Positions 25,147 through 33,877 of a stretch of 64,000 bases of DNA are shown here, piece after piece. Source of the stretch: a bacterium (lineage in GTDB: Bacteria; Patescibacteriota; CPR2; UBA1875; CAIMLA01); the NCBI GenBank assembly GCA_037129835.1, contig JBAXUE010000002.1:66334-130333 (forward strand), read 5' to 3'. Position 1 is the stretch's first letter. The number at the start of each line of letters is the position of its first letter. Both the position numbers and the translations under genes were made by a program. The notes beneath the pieces are model-generated. The model was given only the letters and a program-made list of their open reading frames with translations, had not been told where the DNA came from and did no database searches.

Positions 25147-26121
25147 TTACTTTTGTACATGTTCCTCTCCTTTTGCATGAATTATATTTTCCATATTATC
25201 ATACAGATAAACAAAATATTTTTCTATTTCATTCATTTTATTTGGTAACATATTTTTTGTAAGAGCTGCCGATTCTGCAAAAAACTCTTCGAAATATTCT
25301 GCATATTCAAGAATAAAGTCGTCAGTGAACTCTCCCTTAATTATACATTCATCATAGAGTGGTTTGATCGCCTTTACTCTGGTCTTTAGATATGGGGTAA
25401 AGGGATTATCTATTAGATATCCCATCCCTGGTGGGTTGTAATACATATTGCCTTCGTCATCTTTGATAAAGAAGAACTGTCCGAATTCGGTATTTGCTAG
25501 TATTCCTCGTTCTAGTTGAGCGCCAGTCCCGTTTTCTGTAGCGTAAAGATTTTTAAAATAAAAATGTCCGATTTCATGTGCAAGTAGATATTCGAGTAGC
25601 GCCTCTTCTTTGTTATCTGCTTCTTTTACTACATCTGGCATCTCGTATGGATAGTCATAGGTATCAAATAGCTTTATATCGCCAAAGTGCTCGCTTTCTC
25701 TGTCGGAAATGGCATGTGCCCGTACCCTCAACCACTCATCACCCTCAGGTAGCTCGTTGTTTGCTTTGGCTTTTTCGTATTCTTCCCTGTTATAAAGCTT
25801 CTTTTCATTCTCTATTCCTGGGGTGTAGACATACATTATTACATTATCATAGATTATTTTTGATATACCGACTTTTTTAAAATCCTCTAATTCGTAATTT
25901 CTCGCGATGAACTCCAAGGCGCTCTCTCCTAGATTCTTGTTTTCTTCAAATCCTTCGAAACCGAGATATGCTCGAAAATCATCTAGCTTCTCCTTTGATA
26001 TTTCATCATGAGTTTCCGTATAGACACTACTAGTAGGCGCACTTTCTTTAAGTTTTGTTCTTTCCCACAGCTTACTAGCCTCACGCTCAGCAGGTCCTAT
26101 TGGTAATGGTATATGTTCCAC
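25147..26121 (-). CDS. Hypothetical cytoplasmic protein with HExxH (AHEIGHF) zinc-binding motif
   Basis: HEIGH motif in the middle of an acidic 324-aa protein. No other recognisable domain. Confidence 0.4.
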   Translation of the reverse strand: MEHIPLPIGPAEREASKLWERTKLKESAPTSSVYTETHDEISKEKLDDFRAYLGFEGFEENKNLGESALEFIARNYELEDFKKVGISKIIYDNVIMYVYTPGIENEKKLYNREEYEKAKANNELPEGDEWLRVRAHAISDRESEHFGDIKLFDTYDYPYEMPDVVKEADNKEEALLEYLLAHEIGHFYFKNLYATENGTGAQLERGILANTEFGQFFFIKDDEGNMYYNPPGMGYLIDNPFTPYLKTRVKAIKPLYDECIIKGEFTDDFILEYAEYFEEFFAESAALTKNMLPNKMNEIEKYFVYLYDNMENIIHAKGEEHVQK

Positions 26122-26140
26122 TATTATCCTTTCTTTGTAT

Positions 26141-26812
26141 TTATTTCTCTTTCGTCACCAAGAACGGAAAAACTCTGTTCATTTCATCGTTCCGAAGGAT
26201 AAATGCCGCCTCGAGGAAAGTATACAGTAAATCTTTTGTATTTTTCAGTACATCAGCACTACAAAAGACGACGAAATCAGCTTCGTTTATCTCTGAGGGC
26301 GATTGGATGTGGATCTTGTTTCTCAAGTTCTTGAGCTGTTTCAAATCATTTCGATAAAAGGCAAATGACAGCCCGAATGTCTGCTCCTGCGCAGACTTAT
26401 AGAGTAAGCTCTTAAAATCATGGATATCGTCATAGCTGGCACCTGTTTCTTTGTGCTGGATATACAGAATAGACTCTATTATTAGTGCCGATATCAGAAC
26501 AAATGTCTTCACATTCTGCCCATAGAGAGAGCTGGTGAGATATAGCTGCTTGGTGCATTCGTCTAGATAGTGAAGATATTGGAGATTATAGGCGATGTTA
26601 CTAAAAGCAGCATACTTTGGGTCATCATCAGAAAATTCGTAATCTATCAGCCGTGGGAATATAGTACTGCGATAGAAATCTATTGAGTTTGGCAGAAACT
26701 TGTTCGAACCCTCCTCTTTGGAACAAACCCGACACAAGATATTAGGCTTGTCTGGATTGTACAAGTCCTGCTTTACAAAGCCTGAATTGCTGTGTTGTTC
26801 TGTTTTAGTCAT
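26141..26812 (-). CDS. Hypothetical protein at the edge of defense island (N-terminal CxxC)
   Basis: 223-aa ORF with an N-terminal CRVC pair. Helical C-terminus. Confidence 0.4.
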   Translation of the reverse strand: MTKTEQHSNSGFVKQDLYNPDKPNILCRVCSKEEGSNKFLPNSIDFYRSTIFPRLIDYEFSDDDPKYAAFSNIAYNLQYLHYLDECTKQLYLTSSLYGQNVKTFVLISALIIESILYIQHKETGASYDDIHDFKSLLYKSAQEQTFGLSFAFYRNDLKQLKNLRNKIHIQSPSEINEADFVVFCSADVLKNTKDLLYTFLEAAFILRNDEMNRVFPFLVTKEK

Positions 26813-26873
26813 TTTTCCCTTTTATAAAAGAATACATTGTTCTATCTTACTTTGTAAAAAATTATTAACTAAA

Positions 26874-28229
26874 CTAGTCTCTGCCACCCCTTTGTCTATT
26901 ACAATATCGGTGGACTAATCTGGCGTTTGATAGCTTGGTTTCTCCACCTCGCCAGTAAAACTCAATATGATCAACCTCAGAATCGTCTAAAACACGTATT
27001 TTTTGACCACATATTTTACAGGTTGAATCAGTGTCAAAAAGTTGCTTTTTCTCGTCGTGTGAATAGTTTCTTGTCTGTGACTTGGAATAATCTACGATTT
27101 TCCTCAAAGATTCTAGCCATTTCTCAAATCTGTATTGCACATTTTCTGGCTTATCTGTTGATGACTTCAAGGAATCTTCAAATTTCTTGACAGCTGTCAT
27201 TAAGTGTAAAAGTTCTTCGCGAATAGAATCAAGGTGAGGGATAATTTCGTTTTTTTGATACATCGTGAAACCCCACATTACGATGTCAAATAAGCCTTTG
27301 TTTATTTTTGTATTTTCCCACTTTCCGTTTGAGTCAGATTCTTCGCCTACAACAAACCTACGAAAAGCATTGTCACCAAATACTGAGCGAGTTAGGTCAA
27401 CAGATTTTTTAAAAACCTCACGAAGTTCTTTTGCTTTTTCTTCATTTAGATTTTGGTTATTATGCATTTCTTGATTTAGAAACTGTCTCATGGGTGCTTT
27501 GTATTTTAAGTATGAGTTATTATAAAAAGCGAAAAATCGTAATAAAAGCTCTCTATCAATCATTCTTATGGACATAGCTGGTGATTTTAATAATGTTTGA
27601 TATTCTTTATTTTCGGCAAGCTCGATTAGTAAGTCGTTATATTTTCCACGGTAAATACAGTTTCTGAGTTCCTGGTCGTTCAGCTTCACTGCGCCAGTAT
27701 TTAGTCTTTCGAAAACCTCAAATCTAACATTGATATCAGAATCCTTTTTGATTCTGATAAATGGTATAAGATAAGAATCAACTTTTCGCTGTGTTATTTT
27801 GTCTAGTTCCTTAAATGATTTCCTGTTTAGTCCTGTCAAAACCTTTAATCCCGAAAGGGCAAATTTTTCGTGCTTGTCTTGAAAGTACCCGTCCTTAAAA
27901 GAAAAGATAGAAATTAGTCTTTGTTGCCCGTCTATTACTGATTGGGTACCGTCATCTTCTTCGGCAGTGTATATTACTGGTATCGGGACTCCCAAGAGAA
28001 TAGATTCTATCAGTCTACTAGCTTTGCTTTTATCCCAGACATATCCTCTTTGAAAGTATGGTCTTACATCAAGTTCCCCTGCCTTGTAATCAGAATATAA
28101 GTCTTTTATGGCTCTACTGGGGTTGTCAAAGGTAATTCTTCTTTCATCCTCAGGTATATCAAAAACCAGTGGTTCGTTGTCATTATTGTCTTCTTCAAGA
28201 ATAACGTCATTATTATCTATTACCGTCAT
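26874..28229 (-). CDS. GmrSD-like type IV restriction protein: DUF262 (ParB-like NTPase/nuclease) N-domain + HNH/DUF1524 C-domain
   Basis: VIDGQQRLISIF is the DUF262 hallmark. The C-terminus CKICGQ…DHIEFYWRGGETKLSNARLVHRYCN is an HNH motif. Confidence 0.8.
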   Translation of the reverse strand: MTVIDNNDVILEEDNNDNEPLVFDIPEDERRITFDNPSRAIKDLYSDYKAGELDVRPYFQRGYVWDKSKASRLIESILLGVPIPVIYTAEEDDGTQSVIDGQQRLISIFSFKDGYFQDKHEKFALSGLKVLTGLNRKSFKELDKITQRKVDSYLIPFIRIKKDSDINVRFEVFERLNTGAVKLNDQELRNCIYRGKYNDLLIELAENKEYQTLLKSPAMSIRMIDRELLLRFFAFYNNSYLKYKAPMRQFLNQEMHNNQNLNEEKAKELREVFKKSVDLTRSVFGDNAFRRFVVGEESDSNGKWENTKINKGLFDIVMWGFTMYQKNEIIPHLDSIREELLHLMTAVKKFEDSLKSSTDKPENVQYRFEKWLESLRKIVDYSKSQTRNYSHDEKKQLFDTDSTCKICGQKIRVLDDSEVDHIEFYWRGGETKLSNARLVHRYCNRQRGGRD

Positions 28230-28285
28230 AATTCTCCTTTACTTTGATCTATCGTTTTTGCTTATCAAGTTTTTTCATTGGTTCG

Positions 28286-29449
28286 CTATTTATTTCCCTT
28301 GGCACGGTTATGTGTTTTACAAAGCATCTCACAGTTATTGATATCTGTGGCGCCACCTTTACTCCATGCTGTAACATGGTCAGCATCCATTTCGGTAAGA
28401 CTCCAGATTTTTGTCTTGTTGGCGTCGTGACCGATTACGCAATTCGGACAATTTGAAATGCCTTTAGATTTAGCGGTCGTAGTTTGTGACGAATATACCG
28501 CTTTTTTAGTTGCCTCATCAAAAACACGAACTTCAAGTAGTTTCTTTTCATTAGACCCACCTAGAATATATTCAAATATTCCCTTTCGATTTTTTATGTA
28601 TGGGTCTCCATAAAGCTTTTGTACGGCCAATGACACTTTTGCAGGATCATAGGCTTTTGTATGAAATTTTTTATAAAGTCGACCCCAATCCAGGCCTCGC
28701 ATTTCACTTTCAACATCTATAAATACACCAGAAACCCATTCTATTACGCTTTTAAAATATGCTTTTAACTCAGTGATATTGTTATCAAAGCGGTGACGAC
28801 TCATATATTCGCCGTTATTACCACAACTAATCCAGTCTAAGGCTCTCTCTAGAAATTCCTGTCTGTTGGCACTGCCAGTTACATAAGCACTCCATTTTTG
28901 AATGTTGGCATTTTGACTATTACTGAATTCCTCTTTACCAAGTGTGACAAATGGACCAGAATAAACCGCATTTAATAGTTCTTGATTATTTAGCGGTACA
29001 CCGGCAATGTTTATGGTTTTGAACCACTCTTTTATTTCACTTTCTTCGCCCTCGCATTCGTATATAAGAAGCTCAGCGTTCATGATTTTAGCCTGCTTAT
29101 CTGAAGCAATTCCACTGAAGTATTGTTCCATGCCGTTTTCGTCTTTTATGGCAAATTTGTTATAAACGAATCGTCCGATACTAGTGATACGTTGTTGTCC
29201 GTCCAATACTTCTAAGTTGTCAGTGCTCACTTTGTTAAAATATATTAAGCCCAGCGGATAGTCTTTGAGTAATGAGTCAATGACCGCGACGTCTTTTTTA
29301 CCATCAGCATAGATGTAGTTACGTTGATACTCTGGCTGAATAGTGAGCTTGCCAGAGAGTCCGAACAAACCCTTGCCTTCATGCTGGTTATACACAAATC
29401 CTTCACATATATTTCTTACGGTTATGTTAGTTACTAAAGTAGTTTTCAT
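28286..29449 (-). CDS. Second DUF262 + HNH (GmrSD-like) protein, paralog of upstream gene
   Basis: [14 protein letters not shown] (DUF262). The C-terminus CPNC…[25 protein letters not shown] is an HNH motif. Confidence 0.75.
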
Positions 29450-30648
29450 GCTATACCTTTCTTGTGTTTGATTAAAATCCTAGCGAATGGAACCACAACA
29501 GTTTCATCTTTTATCATATATAAATCACCGTTCACCGTTCCTCTTTTTTGCACTTCTTTCCGATACTTTTTATGCTCAGGTTTATACGGTTTGACTCCGA
29601 TGGATAAGCCCAGGTTTGCTATTCCCAAACCAATAATATCAAATTGTTCAGGAGAATATTTGTCAAGGAAACTAATTGGCACGCCCATAATACCCTTAAA
29701 GTCTCCAGGAATATGTTTAACGAAAGGAACTTCTATTGCATTAAAATTATCATAATTATCAAAAGATCTTTTAGTGCCAAATTTTATAACGTCTGACAAT
29801 TTCATTAATGGTAAGAATTCGTGAAGCCTTCCGTGGTCAAGATTAGTAAACCAGCGAACACCTTGGACTCTCGTGATGTAAACTTTCTTACCATTTTCAT
29901 CCGTCCGTATTTCGCGTACTTGCTCTAGATTGGCAATATCTTCTGGTATTTCATAAAACATTGCTCCACCATTCACTTTATGATTATTGCCAAGCCAAAT
30001 CTTGTTATCCTTAATTAATGGAAAGACTTCTTTATAAGTAATAGCGTTCATACTACCAATTATTAAGAACTTTTTTTTGTACTCAATAAGTTGTTTTAAG
30101 TACTCGCGGAACAAACTGAAAGGCGGGTTAGTTACCACTATATCAGCCTGCTTTAGTAGCTCAACACACTCGTTGCTCCGAAAATCTCCGGCTGCGTATT
30201 TATCATCGCCAAGTAAAAGCGAATAAGCATTATTGTCATGTTCTAAAAGCCATTTCACATCATTAAGGTTGGTTATGCCATCTTTATTAAGGTCTGAAAC
30301 CTCATTGATCTCAATTTTAAATGCTTTTTTATTTTTTCGATTAGAAAGTGTCTTATTTTTACCCATTTCTTCGAAACCCGGTATTTGTATCTGTGTTTGT
30401 ACAATCGGCGAACCAACGTAGCTTGTCGTTATCAACTTTTTTAAGCCAAATTCCTTAAATTTATTTGCAAAATACTTGAAGAAATTACTTTCAAATGGGT
30501 CATCGCAGTTGCAATAGACTATCTTGCCGCGAAAAACATCAGGATCGTAATCAATGTAGGCTTGGATTTCCTTCTGAATATCTTGATATTGAGTATAAAA
30601 CTCGTCGTTTTTAGTCTTTTTTGCGTTATGTAAATTTTTTTGTGCCAT
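29446..30648 (-). CDS. N6-adenine DNA methyltransferase of the M.EcoRI family
   Basis: The N-terminus …[19 protein letters not shown]…[18 protein letters not shown] and the catalytic [15 protein letters not shown] closely resemble M.EcoRI as I remember it. Its stop overlaps the downstream DUF262 gene start (ATGA). Confidence 0.8.
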
Positions 30649-30660
30649 TTAAAACCTTAT

Positions 30661-31128
30661 TTATTTTTCAAAGCAAATTGGATTAAATATCTTTTCAGGA
30701 AAATCGTTATCTCCAATTTTATATTTTAATTCACCGTTTGTTCCATGTACTGAATATTTTTCTCGATTGCGCTTTGACACAGAAATTGATTTGACTCCGG
30801 ACTGGCTAGGCCTTAACAACCTCTCAATTTCGTCATAGTTTAAGCAACAAACTCCTGCATCGTAACATACAAGTAGGACAAAAACCTTCTCAAACTTTGA
30901 TTTTAGCTCTAATAGTTTTTCGAGATGATTCTCCGAAAATGTAAAGCTCCAGGGGATTAACCGACTCTCAGTATATTTAACATATAAGCCACTTTCTCTG
31001 AGCTGAGAGAGAATCTTAAAACTAGAATTGTCATCATCAACATAATCACTAACACCAAGACATCTTTGGTCTTGAATTATTTTTAGTAAAGCTGCCCCGT
31101 AATATAGTTGATATTTAAAATTTGCCAT
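30661..31128 (-). CDS. Hypothetical 155-aa protein between Z1 NTPase and methyltransferase (candidate effector/specificity partner)
   Basis: 7-nt gap to the Z1 gene and 13-nt gap to the MTase gene. No confident motif; there is a possible acidic cluster after a beta-strand (VFVLLVCYDAG…NYDEIE). Confidence 0.4.
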   Translation of the reverse strand: MANFKYQLYYGAALLKIIQDQRCLGVSDYVDDDNSSFKILSQLRESGLYVKYTESRLIPWSFTFSENHLEKLLELKSKFEKVFVLLVCYDAGVCCLNYDEIERLLRPSQSGVKSISVSKRNREKYSVHGTNGELKYKIGDNDFPEKIFNPICFEK

Positions 31129-31134
31129 AATAAT

Positions 31135-33018
31135 TTATCTTAGCCTATAGTTTGCCTTTTTAAGGCTATCTTTAAAATAGTAAACAAATCTACACTTTCC
31201 TGCCTCGTTTCTGATCAACATAATATGGTGCTTTGCATTGGGAAAAGCGACCATTTCTGTACCACCAAAAACACCCCTACTTCTGTATAAAAAGTCCTTA
31301 TATTCAAGGTCATCTGTTTTTGAAACCATTCTTATTGGATGGAATGCTATGTCCTTGTCTGCAGTCATTCCACTGTATACAATAAAATTAATTAGAAATA
31401 GAGGCACCACACTGCCACCGTAAAGCCGGTTAACTTCTTTTAGCTTTTGGATATTACTTATTCCTTTTTTACTAATAATATCTGAAAAAATGCTAGCGTA
31501 ATCAAACATAGGAAAATACATTTCGTTTTTGTCAGTTAATATATTCTTCTTGTCGATACTAGAACTAGAGGCGGGCTTAACTCTTTGGCTTGAAATCCAA
31601 ACTGGTGCTGCACCCTCGTCATTGCTTTTTAATGATTTTAAAGATAAATCATGAAAAATAAAACAACGGTGCCAGTCCTCGAAAAGTGATTTTGGTATTG
31701 AGAGTTCAAAGAAGTCTTTGTATTTGCCTCTACTGCCGAACATTCTAGCTCTTTGGATATAAGTGTCTTGTTGAATCCTGTGTTTAGCAGTTCGTGTGAA
31801 GAACATGCCCAAAAGATTCTTTATTGTTAAGCCCCGGGAAATTATATTTCCACCAATTATTATTGTAAAAAGAGCTGGTGCATTAGTTGGGTCTTCTTCC
31901 ATTTTATTATTTGAGTTAATAACATAAACTTTTTTCTTATTAACATAATCTTTGACAAATGTTGTCACTTCTTTTGCTGCTATATCACCAAATCTTTCTT
32001 CTGCAATACTGTGTATTATTCCAAGGTAACGTTCCCATTTGGGACCCTTATTTGTATCTGCCAGTGCGTCAAAAAAATTATCTACAATTTTTTTATCTCT
32101 TTCGTGTTCACTTTTAATGCCACTTGTATGAATAATAAAAGCAAAATTAACATCATCATTATTCGCATTTTGTTCTACGAGCTTTTCCTTGTACTCGGGA
32201 TTTATATTTAAATAAGAAGCATTAACTAAAAAGCTTGCTAAAGCTTCATGTAAATATGATGGGTCATCTCCATTCTCAGGAAGTATATTCACCATGTATT
32301 CAACTTCGGTTATTTTTTCTAGATTAATTGGAAAAAAAAAGTCTTTGCCTACATAATTTTTATGAGAATCAAAAAATACCCATTCTTCAGATAAATTATC
32401 AAAAGTATTGTTAAGATCTAGTCGTGCTGGAGTGGCTGTTACCCCAACGTAGGTGCCGTCTCTTCGAAGTAATTTGCCGATTTCGTTATTAATTGCCGTT
32501 ACTTCATCTTTATTTATTTTAGAATTTGGGCTGGCATAATCAGCCTCGTCATCAATTATTATTAAACCACTTCTATTTCTTAGTTTTTCGTTTAAATTTG
32601 TTAAATTGCGGATATTTTTCTTTGAAAAAATTATAACCTGCCCATCATTTAAGTCTTCTTCAAGAAAAGCCCTGCTAGACATGGTATCTGGTGTAGGGTC
32701 GATACCTGAACTAGTAAATCTTTCGAGATTTTGAAGTTCAAGCTTTTTATTGTCATTCATGAGAATAACAATAGTGTTGTTGCCAATATCAAGTAATTTT
32801 GCTGTAAGCGATATCATCATTTCGGTTTTGCCACTTTGTGGCTCACCGTAAATCACAAATGATGTTATACCCTTTTGAATTTTTTCTACTGAATCTGAAA
32901 CAGCGTTTTCAATTTGAAAAGTATCAATACCCTTTTTATCTCTAAGGAAATTAATTCTTTTCTCATATCGGCTGTTTCTTCTATTTTCTGAGTCTCTATA
33001 ATCATCTGGATTAAACAT
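31135..33018 (-). CDS. Z1-domain P-loop NTPase (restriction-modification-associated ATPase family)
   Basis: Walker A GEPQSGKTEMM and a Walker B/DEAD-like LIIIDDEADYAS, the pattern I recall for Z1-domain proteins (…QSGKT…DEADxAS). Confidence 0.55.
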   Translation of the reverse strand: MFNPDDYRDSENRRNSRYEKRINFLRDKKGIDTFQIENAVSDSVEKIQKGITSFVIYGEPQSGKTEMMISLTAKLLDIGNNTIVILMNDNKKLELQNLERFTSSGIDPTPDTMSSRAFLEEDLNDGQVIIFSKKNIRNLTNLNEKLRNRSGLIIIDDEADYASPNSKINKDEVTAINNEIGKLLRRDGTYVGVTATPARLDLNNTFDNLSEEWVFFDSHKNYVGKDFFFPINLEKITEVEYMVNILPENGDDPSYLHEALASFLVNASYLNINPEYKEKLVEQNANNDDVNFAFIIHTSGIKSEHERDKKIVDNFFDALADTNKGPKWERYLGIIHSIAEERFGDIAAKEVTTFVKDYVNKKKVYVINSNNKMEEDPTNAPALFTIIIGGNIISRGLTIKNLLGMFFTRTAKHRIQQDTYIQRARMFGSRGKYKDFFELSIPKSLFEDWHRCFIFHDLSLKSLKSNDEGAAPVWISSQRVKPASSSSIDKKNILTDKNEMYFPMFDYASIFSDIISKKGISNIQKLKEVNRLYGGSVVPLFLINFIVYSGMTADKDIAFHPIRMVSKTDDLEYKDFLYRSRGVFGGTEMVAFPNAKHHIMLIRNEAGKCRFVYYFKDSLKKANYRLR

Positions 33019-33241
33019 AGCTCTCCAAATTTAATATATATTATATTCTACTCTCCTTTTGTGCTTATCGCAAGCATAAATTCGGTTTGACGGCTCTAGG
33101 CATCGGATATTGACAACTAAAATACGCGGAGTATAATTATTCATGAAGAGAGCAGTAATGCCTATGTAACGCCGAGTGGAGGCACCTCGATAGAGGGCCC
33201 GTGAAGCGAGGAGCACGAGTATATAGGTCACCTCTTCTTTT

Positions 33242-33877
33242 TTATAGCTTATTTTCTAAATATATTAAATTAACTTTTTTACCTAGTTTAGTCAGAGTTT
33301 TTTTATTTCCATACAGGTGACTATGAATAATTCCACATATCTGATCTGCTATTTGTAGATTTGCTTCTTCTGACGTGCCAAAATCAATACGAAAGTCCGA
33401 CTCTGGGTACTCTAGTTTTAGTTCGGTCTCGATAGTTCTTGATAAACCTTCTTTATTAATTAATTTTGTTTTAAAACTATCTAAAGTCACTATAGTCACC
33501 TTTTCACGTTTAAATGTTTTGCTAGATTCAAGCAAAACCTTCTTTACAAGGTTGATGTACAACCTGTCATAGACAAGCTTACTTTTGTAATAATATTTCT
33601 GAGACAGCAGATTCTTGCTCTGAGAAGCAGCGAATACTGTAATCTCAGGTGCTGGACACTCAGGACTAAAGATATATGGCAATATATACAAGTCTGATAA
33701 AGCATTTGAGCTCTTTATTTCACCTTTCGGATAACTGGCAGGTAGTGCCTTCCTCTTAACCTTCTTATACCATTTCGCCGTCTCACCCGGATTTGCAGTG
33801 CTAAAACCGGCCACAGCCATAAACTGATTTTTTGTGCCCTTTTCTAAGTTAAAAGTTTCGTCGATATAGATAAACAT
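33242..33877 (-). CDS. DUF3800-like protein
   Basis: MFIYIDETFN… start, typical of DUF3800 (…YIDESG…). About 210 aa. Confidence 0.45.
   Translation of the reverse strand: MFIYIDETFNLEKGTKNQFMAVAGFSTANPGETAKWYKKVKRKALPASYPKGEIKSSNALSDLYILPYIFSPECPAPEITVFAASQSKNLLSQKYYYKSKLVYDRLYINLVKKVLLESSKTFKREKVTIVTLDSFKTKLINKEGLSRTIETELKLEYPESDFRIDFGTSEEANLQIADQICGIIHSHLYGNKKTLTKLGKKVNLIYLENKL

Follow-up and report, generated by a model that had tools for sequence, protein, structure and literature searches.

We analyzed a 64,000-nucleotide stretch (the 64-kb window) of contig JBAXUE010000002.1 from a bacterium assigned to Patescibacteriota (CPR2; UBA1875; CAIMLA01; assembly GCA_037129835.1, positions 66,334 to 130,333 of the forward strand) and focused on a string of putative defense genes within it. 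A reading made from the letters alone (the sequence-only reading) had grouped three of these genes, encoding an EcoRI-family methylase, a 155-aa small protein and a 627-aa Z1-domain ATPase (here called the motor), into one candidate module. All three open reading frames (ORFs) are present on the minus strand (Table 1), in the order motor, small protein, methylase. The spacers between them measure 6 and 12 nt, not 7 and 13 nt as had been claimed, and the methylase stop overlaps the start of a 387-aa DUF262-HNH nuclease gene by 4 nt (ATGA), an overlap that had been noticed correctly. No minus-strand terminator-like site was found in 26000-33400, and promoter and terminator scans of this region gave counts not above shuffled controls. 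With a spacing of 6, 12 and -4 nt, the four genes are compact enough that they probably share a single transcript, which makes the long defense transcript proposed earlier plausible. However, genomes of candidate phyla are compact, and short gaps are therefore weak evidence that neighboring genes form one system.

Table 1. Features of the defense gene string, in positions of the 64-kb window.
Feature	Position	Strand	Match or remark
627-aa ORF (motor)	31135-33018	-	
155-aa ORF (small protein)	30661-31128	-	
EcoRI-family N6-adenine DNA methyltransferase, 400 aa, NPPF motif	29446-30648	-	PF13651, PADLOC MTase_II
DUF262(ParB/GmrS-like)-HNH endonuclease, 387 aa	28286-29449	-	GmrSD_N 1.1e-21, HNH 9.9e-8, PADLOC REase_II
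Second DUF262-HNH protein, 451 aa, NsnA / PD-T4-2_A-like	26874-28229	-	
223-aa protein, no family matched	26141-26812	-	
Consensus-scan site	33045..33073	-	Consensus match alone; regional site count not above shuffled controls

The resemblance of the methylase to M.EcoRI was borne out by a match to PF13651 (1.1e-122, residues 5-396, profile 1-345 of 345) and a match to PADLOC MTase_II (4.6e-102); the methylase encoded next to R.EcoRI on an E. coli plasmid is 41.6% identical to it. Equally, no EcoRI-like endonuclease was found among the neighboring genes scanned, as the sequence-only reading had stated. The 387-aa nuclease matches PADLOC REase_II PDLC03418 (8.2e-84, residues 8-387, profile 7-372 of 372), and its translation contains intact DGQQR ('LDGQQRITS') and HNH ('DADHV...') motifs. 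A tblastn search of plasmids with this protein returned 94 records, of which 44 span 80% or more of its length. The 25 best records show 55-70% identity and come from Moraxella, Enterococcus, Leuconostoc, Pediococcus, Apilactobacillus, Rhodococcus, Arthrobacter, Gordonia, Paracoccus and Phocaeicola; these plasmid hosts represent several phyla. Wherever position or annotation was available, these 25 records carry an EcoRI-family methylase upstream on the same strand, at a distance below 250 nt except in Phocaeicola (about 1 kb). In that plasmid, from Phocaeicola massiliensis (OY725995.1, 28171-31594), the wider spacing may reflect insertion of a further small gene that separates the methylase from the DUF262-HNH homologue.

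The conserved partner of the EcoRI-family methylase is the downstream DUF262-HNH gene, and the two appear to form a self-contained, widely transferred two-gene pair in which the 387-aa protein would be the cognate restriction enzyme. From the conserved order and the translational coupling we infer that the methylase shields host DNA from the HNH nuclease, as in a horizontally mobile, Type II-like module. Because of this pairing the nuclease looks methylation-blocked and not methylation-dependent; the modification-dependent role previously suggested for it fits poorly with a conserved methylase-then-nuclease arrangement. GmrSD, BrxU and SspE combine DUF262 with a His-Me nuclease and are modification-dependent Type IV systems (PMC4619093). 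Both the 387-aa protein and the 451-aa protein encoded downstream of it share with this family an N-terminal DUF262/GmrS domain with DGQQR and a C-terminal His-Me nuclease. They differ from it in that the C-terminal domain is a classic HNH (PF01844) and not DUF1524, and in that the 387-aa protein consistently lies downstream of a methylase.

Compared with the EcoRI restriction-modification (R-M) system, the locus has a full-length member of the same methylase family but a DUF262-HNH partner, and GAATTC is not avoided. The depletion of this site that might have been expected was absent from the window (15 observed, 16 expected), in a test of low power, avoidance not being obligatory; the result therefore says little either way about a composite system. 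No clearly avoided 6-mer palindrome was found in the window, and CAATTG is not depleted either. With maximal-order Markov expectations, GATC is under-represented (163 observed, 255 expected, ratio 0.64), CTAG is over-represented (1.33), and TATA (0.72) and AATT (0.82) are mildly low. Such mild 4-mer effects (GATC, AATT, TATA) are uninformative for specificity.

The 155-aa protein gave no matches in Pfam, NCBIfam, PADLOC or PDB sequences, and a word-index homology search retrieved only the protein itself. Its sole library match, phrog_28860, has no known function. On the other hand, when 1.84 billion cluster representatives were searched exhaustively with HMMER, 472 were recovered at E<=1e-3 and 148 at E<=1e-10, most of them with a length of 145-170 aa. 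Named relatives are all 'hypothetical' or 'uncharacterized' and carry no precomputed Pfam domain, and four typical family members had no PADLOC match. These relatives and the conserved synteny show that the 155-aa ORF is a genuine gene, and the same sequence recurs in several samples. One contig diverges from the window sequence upstream of 31861, over 129 nt that permit no interpretation. In a Pacearchaeota archaeon (L048, 4113-5198), the homologue makes up the N-terminal portion of a 361-aa ORF, and the C-terminal portion gives a borderline HD-domain match (1.6e-4; 22.4 bits, cut-off 22). The ORF may represent either a fusion with a phosphohydrolase or nuclease domain or an artefact of read-through.

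From a 62-sequence alignment, AlphaFold2 modeled the small protein with a predicted local distance difference test (pLDDT) score of 94.5 and a predicted template-modeling (pTM) score of 0.89; single-sequence prediction was unusable (pLDDT 45). The predicted structure contains the alpha-beta-beta-beta-alpha-beta core of the PD-(D/E)xK superfamily, and the model thus assigns the protein to this nuclease fold. Junction resolvases are its closest structural matches, in agreement with the Foldseek ranking. The earlier idea of a small nuclease is supported as far as the fold is concerned; the catalytic residues give a less clear picture. Family-wide invariants are G11, K51, R56, P59-W60, F62, C88, D91-G92, R119, Y125 and G129. 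K51 is conserved in 136/140 sequences of the family alignment, with an aromatic residue (Y/F, 113/140) two positions earlier, and stands at the position of the Hjc catalytic lysine by the order of secondary-structure elements. Residue equivalences with Hjc follow that order only, because hhalign of the family profile with an approximate Pyrococcus Hjc sequence gave no alignment. No acidic residue is conserved in strand 2; elsewhere, the family conserves acidic residues at helix-1 position E7 (E or D in 82/124 representatives), at D91 (134/150) and at E100. Archaeal Hjc, bacterial RecU and I-Ssp6803I share 9-15% sequence identity with the 155-aa protein. Of the canonical E...D...ExK residues, the family keeps only K51 and, mostly, the helix-1 acidic residue. 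Its C-terminal part carries an additional beta-hairpin and helix (about 106-155), and it is genomically tied to an ATPase, not to recombination genes. Possible readings are a non-canonical active site or a role as a DNA-binding subunit.

We then considered the genes that accompany the motor and the small protein. Among 80 family loci, 71 (89%) have a methylase in the cassette, 53 adjacent on the same strand and 18 elsewhere in the flank. The 53 adjacent genes form one cluster, all PF01555 (N6_N4, TSPPY). In 21 family members the methylase lies directly downstream of the small gene. Most of the family is therefore organized as a three-gene cassette with a TSPPY methylase, and one clade, which includes the window, is without such a methylase; no copy of the N6_N4 type occurs within the 64-kb window. 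The motor and small-protein genes are the only genes common to this clade. According to precomputed Pfam gene lists, clade loci with readable flanks have no methylase within 6-8 kb, and a motif-IV/C5 regular-expression search found none in the flanks of four loci (L007, L008, L012 and L014; L098 stands in for L012 in the Pfam lists). In two further loci (L013, L096) the sequence ends too soon after the pair for methylase status to be read. In a Pfam batch scan of the neighbors of four loci without a methylase, TPR families dominated the 25 top families listed. Overlapping genes suggest that motor and small protein may form a complex.

Similar architectures have been described. CglI, NgoAVII and BceSIV are ATP-dependent R-M systems made of M, R and H components (PMC4267653, PMC5737866, PMC5861437). 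As in these systems, the window motor is encoded beside a separate nuclease-fold subunit, and a stand-alone Type II-like methylase belongs to the cassette in most of the small-protein family. The differences are nonetheless considerable. Their R subunit is a phospholipase D (PLD) family nuclease of about 350 aa fused to a B3 DNA-binding domain, whereas the partner here is an Hjc/RecU-like PD-(D/E)xK-fold protein of about 150 aa, and no PLD-family match was found in any neighboring gene scanned. Here the motor gene precedes that of the small protein, unlike in the described systems; their cassette methylase is of C5 type and that of the small-protein family PF01555 N6_N4; and the clade of the window has no dedicated methylase nearby. 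For the C-terminal domain of the motor, a profile of 42 homologues compared with PDB sequences, for sequence-level matches only, did not retrieve the solved H.CglI C-domain (PDB 6F1S) and gave only a weak resemblance to DnaA domain IV (domain E 0.28). Membership in MZA was rejected, given 41 bits against an MzaC equivalog cut-off of 1500, a different protein length and different partners; no other Mza components were found in the neighborhood scanned.

Overall, we favor, at a probability of roughly 60%, the interpretation that the flagged region comprises two independent restriction modules lying head to tail in a defense island and probably co-transcribed. It builds on the structures of the genes, on their folds and domains, on the pairings that recur and on the structure of the clade, all of which are shown here. 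Module A would consist of the motor and the PD-(D/E)xK-fold protein, presumably acting as a complex that cleaves DNA in an ATP-dependent manner, and Module B of the methylase and the 387-aa nuclease; each would work without the other. The original grouping takes the first two of its three genes from one unit and adds the gene that begins another, since the conserved partner of the methylase in the 25 best plasmid records is the DUF262-HNH gene.

Several findings weigh against this interpretation. Where the canonical D and (D/E)xK would stand (about N34/S36 and Y49-x-K51), the small protein has no conserved acidic residues, and nuclease activity is therefore not assured. The lack of methylases in the clade applies to flanks of 6-8 kb. 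The window methylase occupies the same slot as in the 21 members with a directly downstream methylase, so that a functional replacement is possible, and a single four-gene system would likewise show the terminator-free gap of 12 nt that separates the methylase from the small gene. These last points would fit a composite system, with the EcoRI-family methylase in the role of a lost N6_N4 methylase. The tight single-strand arrangement, the prevalence of cassette methylases in the family and the fact that the window is the only clade member with any adjacent methylase all speak for it; two unrelated nucleases would, however, have to read the same site, and compact genomes take much of the weight from short gaps. 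We regard such a replacement as unlikely. Somewhat more doubtful still is a methylase-independent mode of the pair in the clade of the window. Several methylase-less loci sit amid housekeeping genes with both pair genes intact, helix-1 E7 is replaced in most of the clade, and the closest structural matches are junction resolvases. Yet likeness to Hjc is no proof of junction specificity, as many sequence-specific restriction enzymes share the fold; unlinked methylases may exist elsewhere in the clade genomes, and a pocket reading modified bases is without direct evidence.

The window copy of the small protein is itself atypical, judging from its residues: it has Q7 and Y10 where the family has E7 and H10, A91 preceded by D90, and K119. 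No other sequence in either data set has A91 or K119 (D91 in 134/150, R119 in 134/148), which also counts against a working Module A since the copy might be impaired. We consider impairment very improbable, because both ORFs are full length, D90 adjoins A91, K for R is conservative, the same sequence is found in several samples and the clade overall retains both genes.

Further along the same gene string, the 451-aa DUF262-HNH protein matches PADLOC NsnA (1.7e-91), PD-T4-2_A (5e-51) and phrog_2598 (2.8e-79), and the gene for the 223-aa protein begins 61 nt after it. The 451-aa gene, perhaps with the 223-aa gene, is probably a further separate defense gene or pair outside both modules. No tRNA or Rfam families were found in the 64-kb window, which therefore offers no clue to an integration site.

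In the interpretation that we favor, the locus is a CglI-like ATP-dependent restriction variant beside an ordinary, little-documented R-M pair, and the three flagged genes should not be labeled as one system in genome annotation. The EcoRI-family methylase and DUF262-HNH nuclease form a broadly mobile pair, and the roles of DUF262 nucleases would thereby extend past modification-dependent Type IV restriction. The points of interest at this locus are the methylase-less clade and the unnamed small-protein family, which has no entry in Pfam, NCBIfam or PADLOC and is 'hypothetical' in every source.
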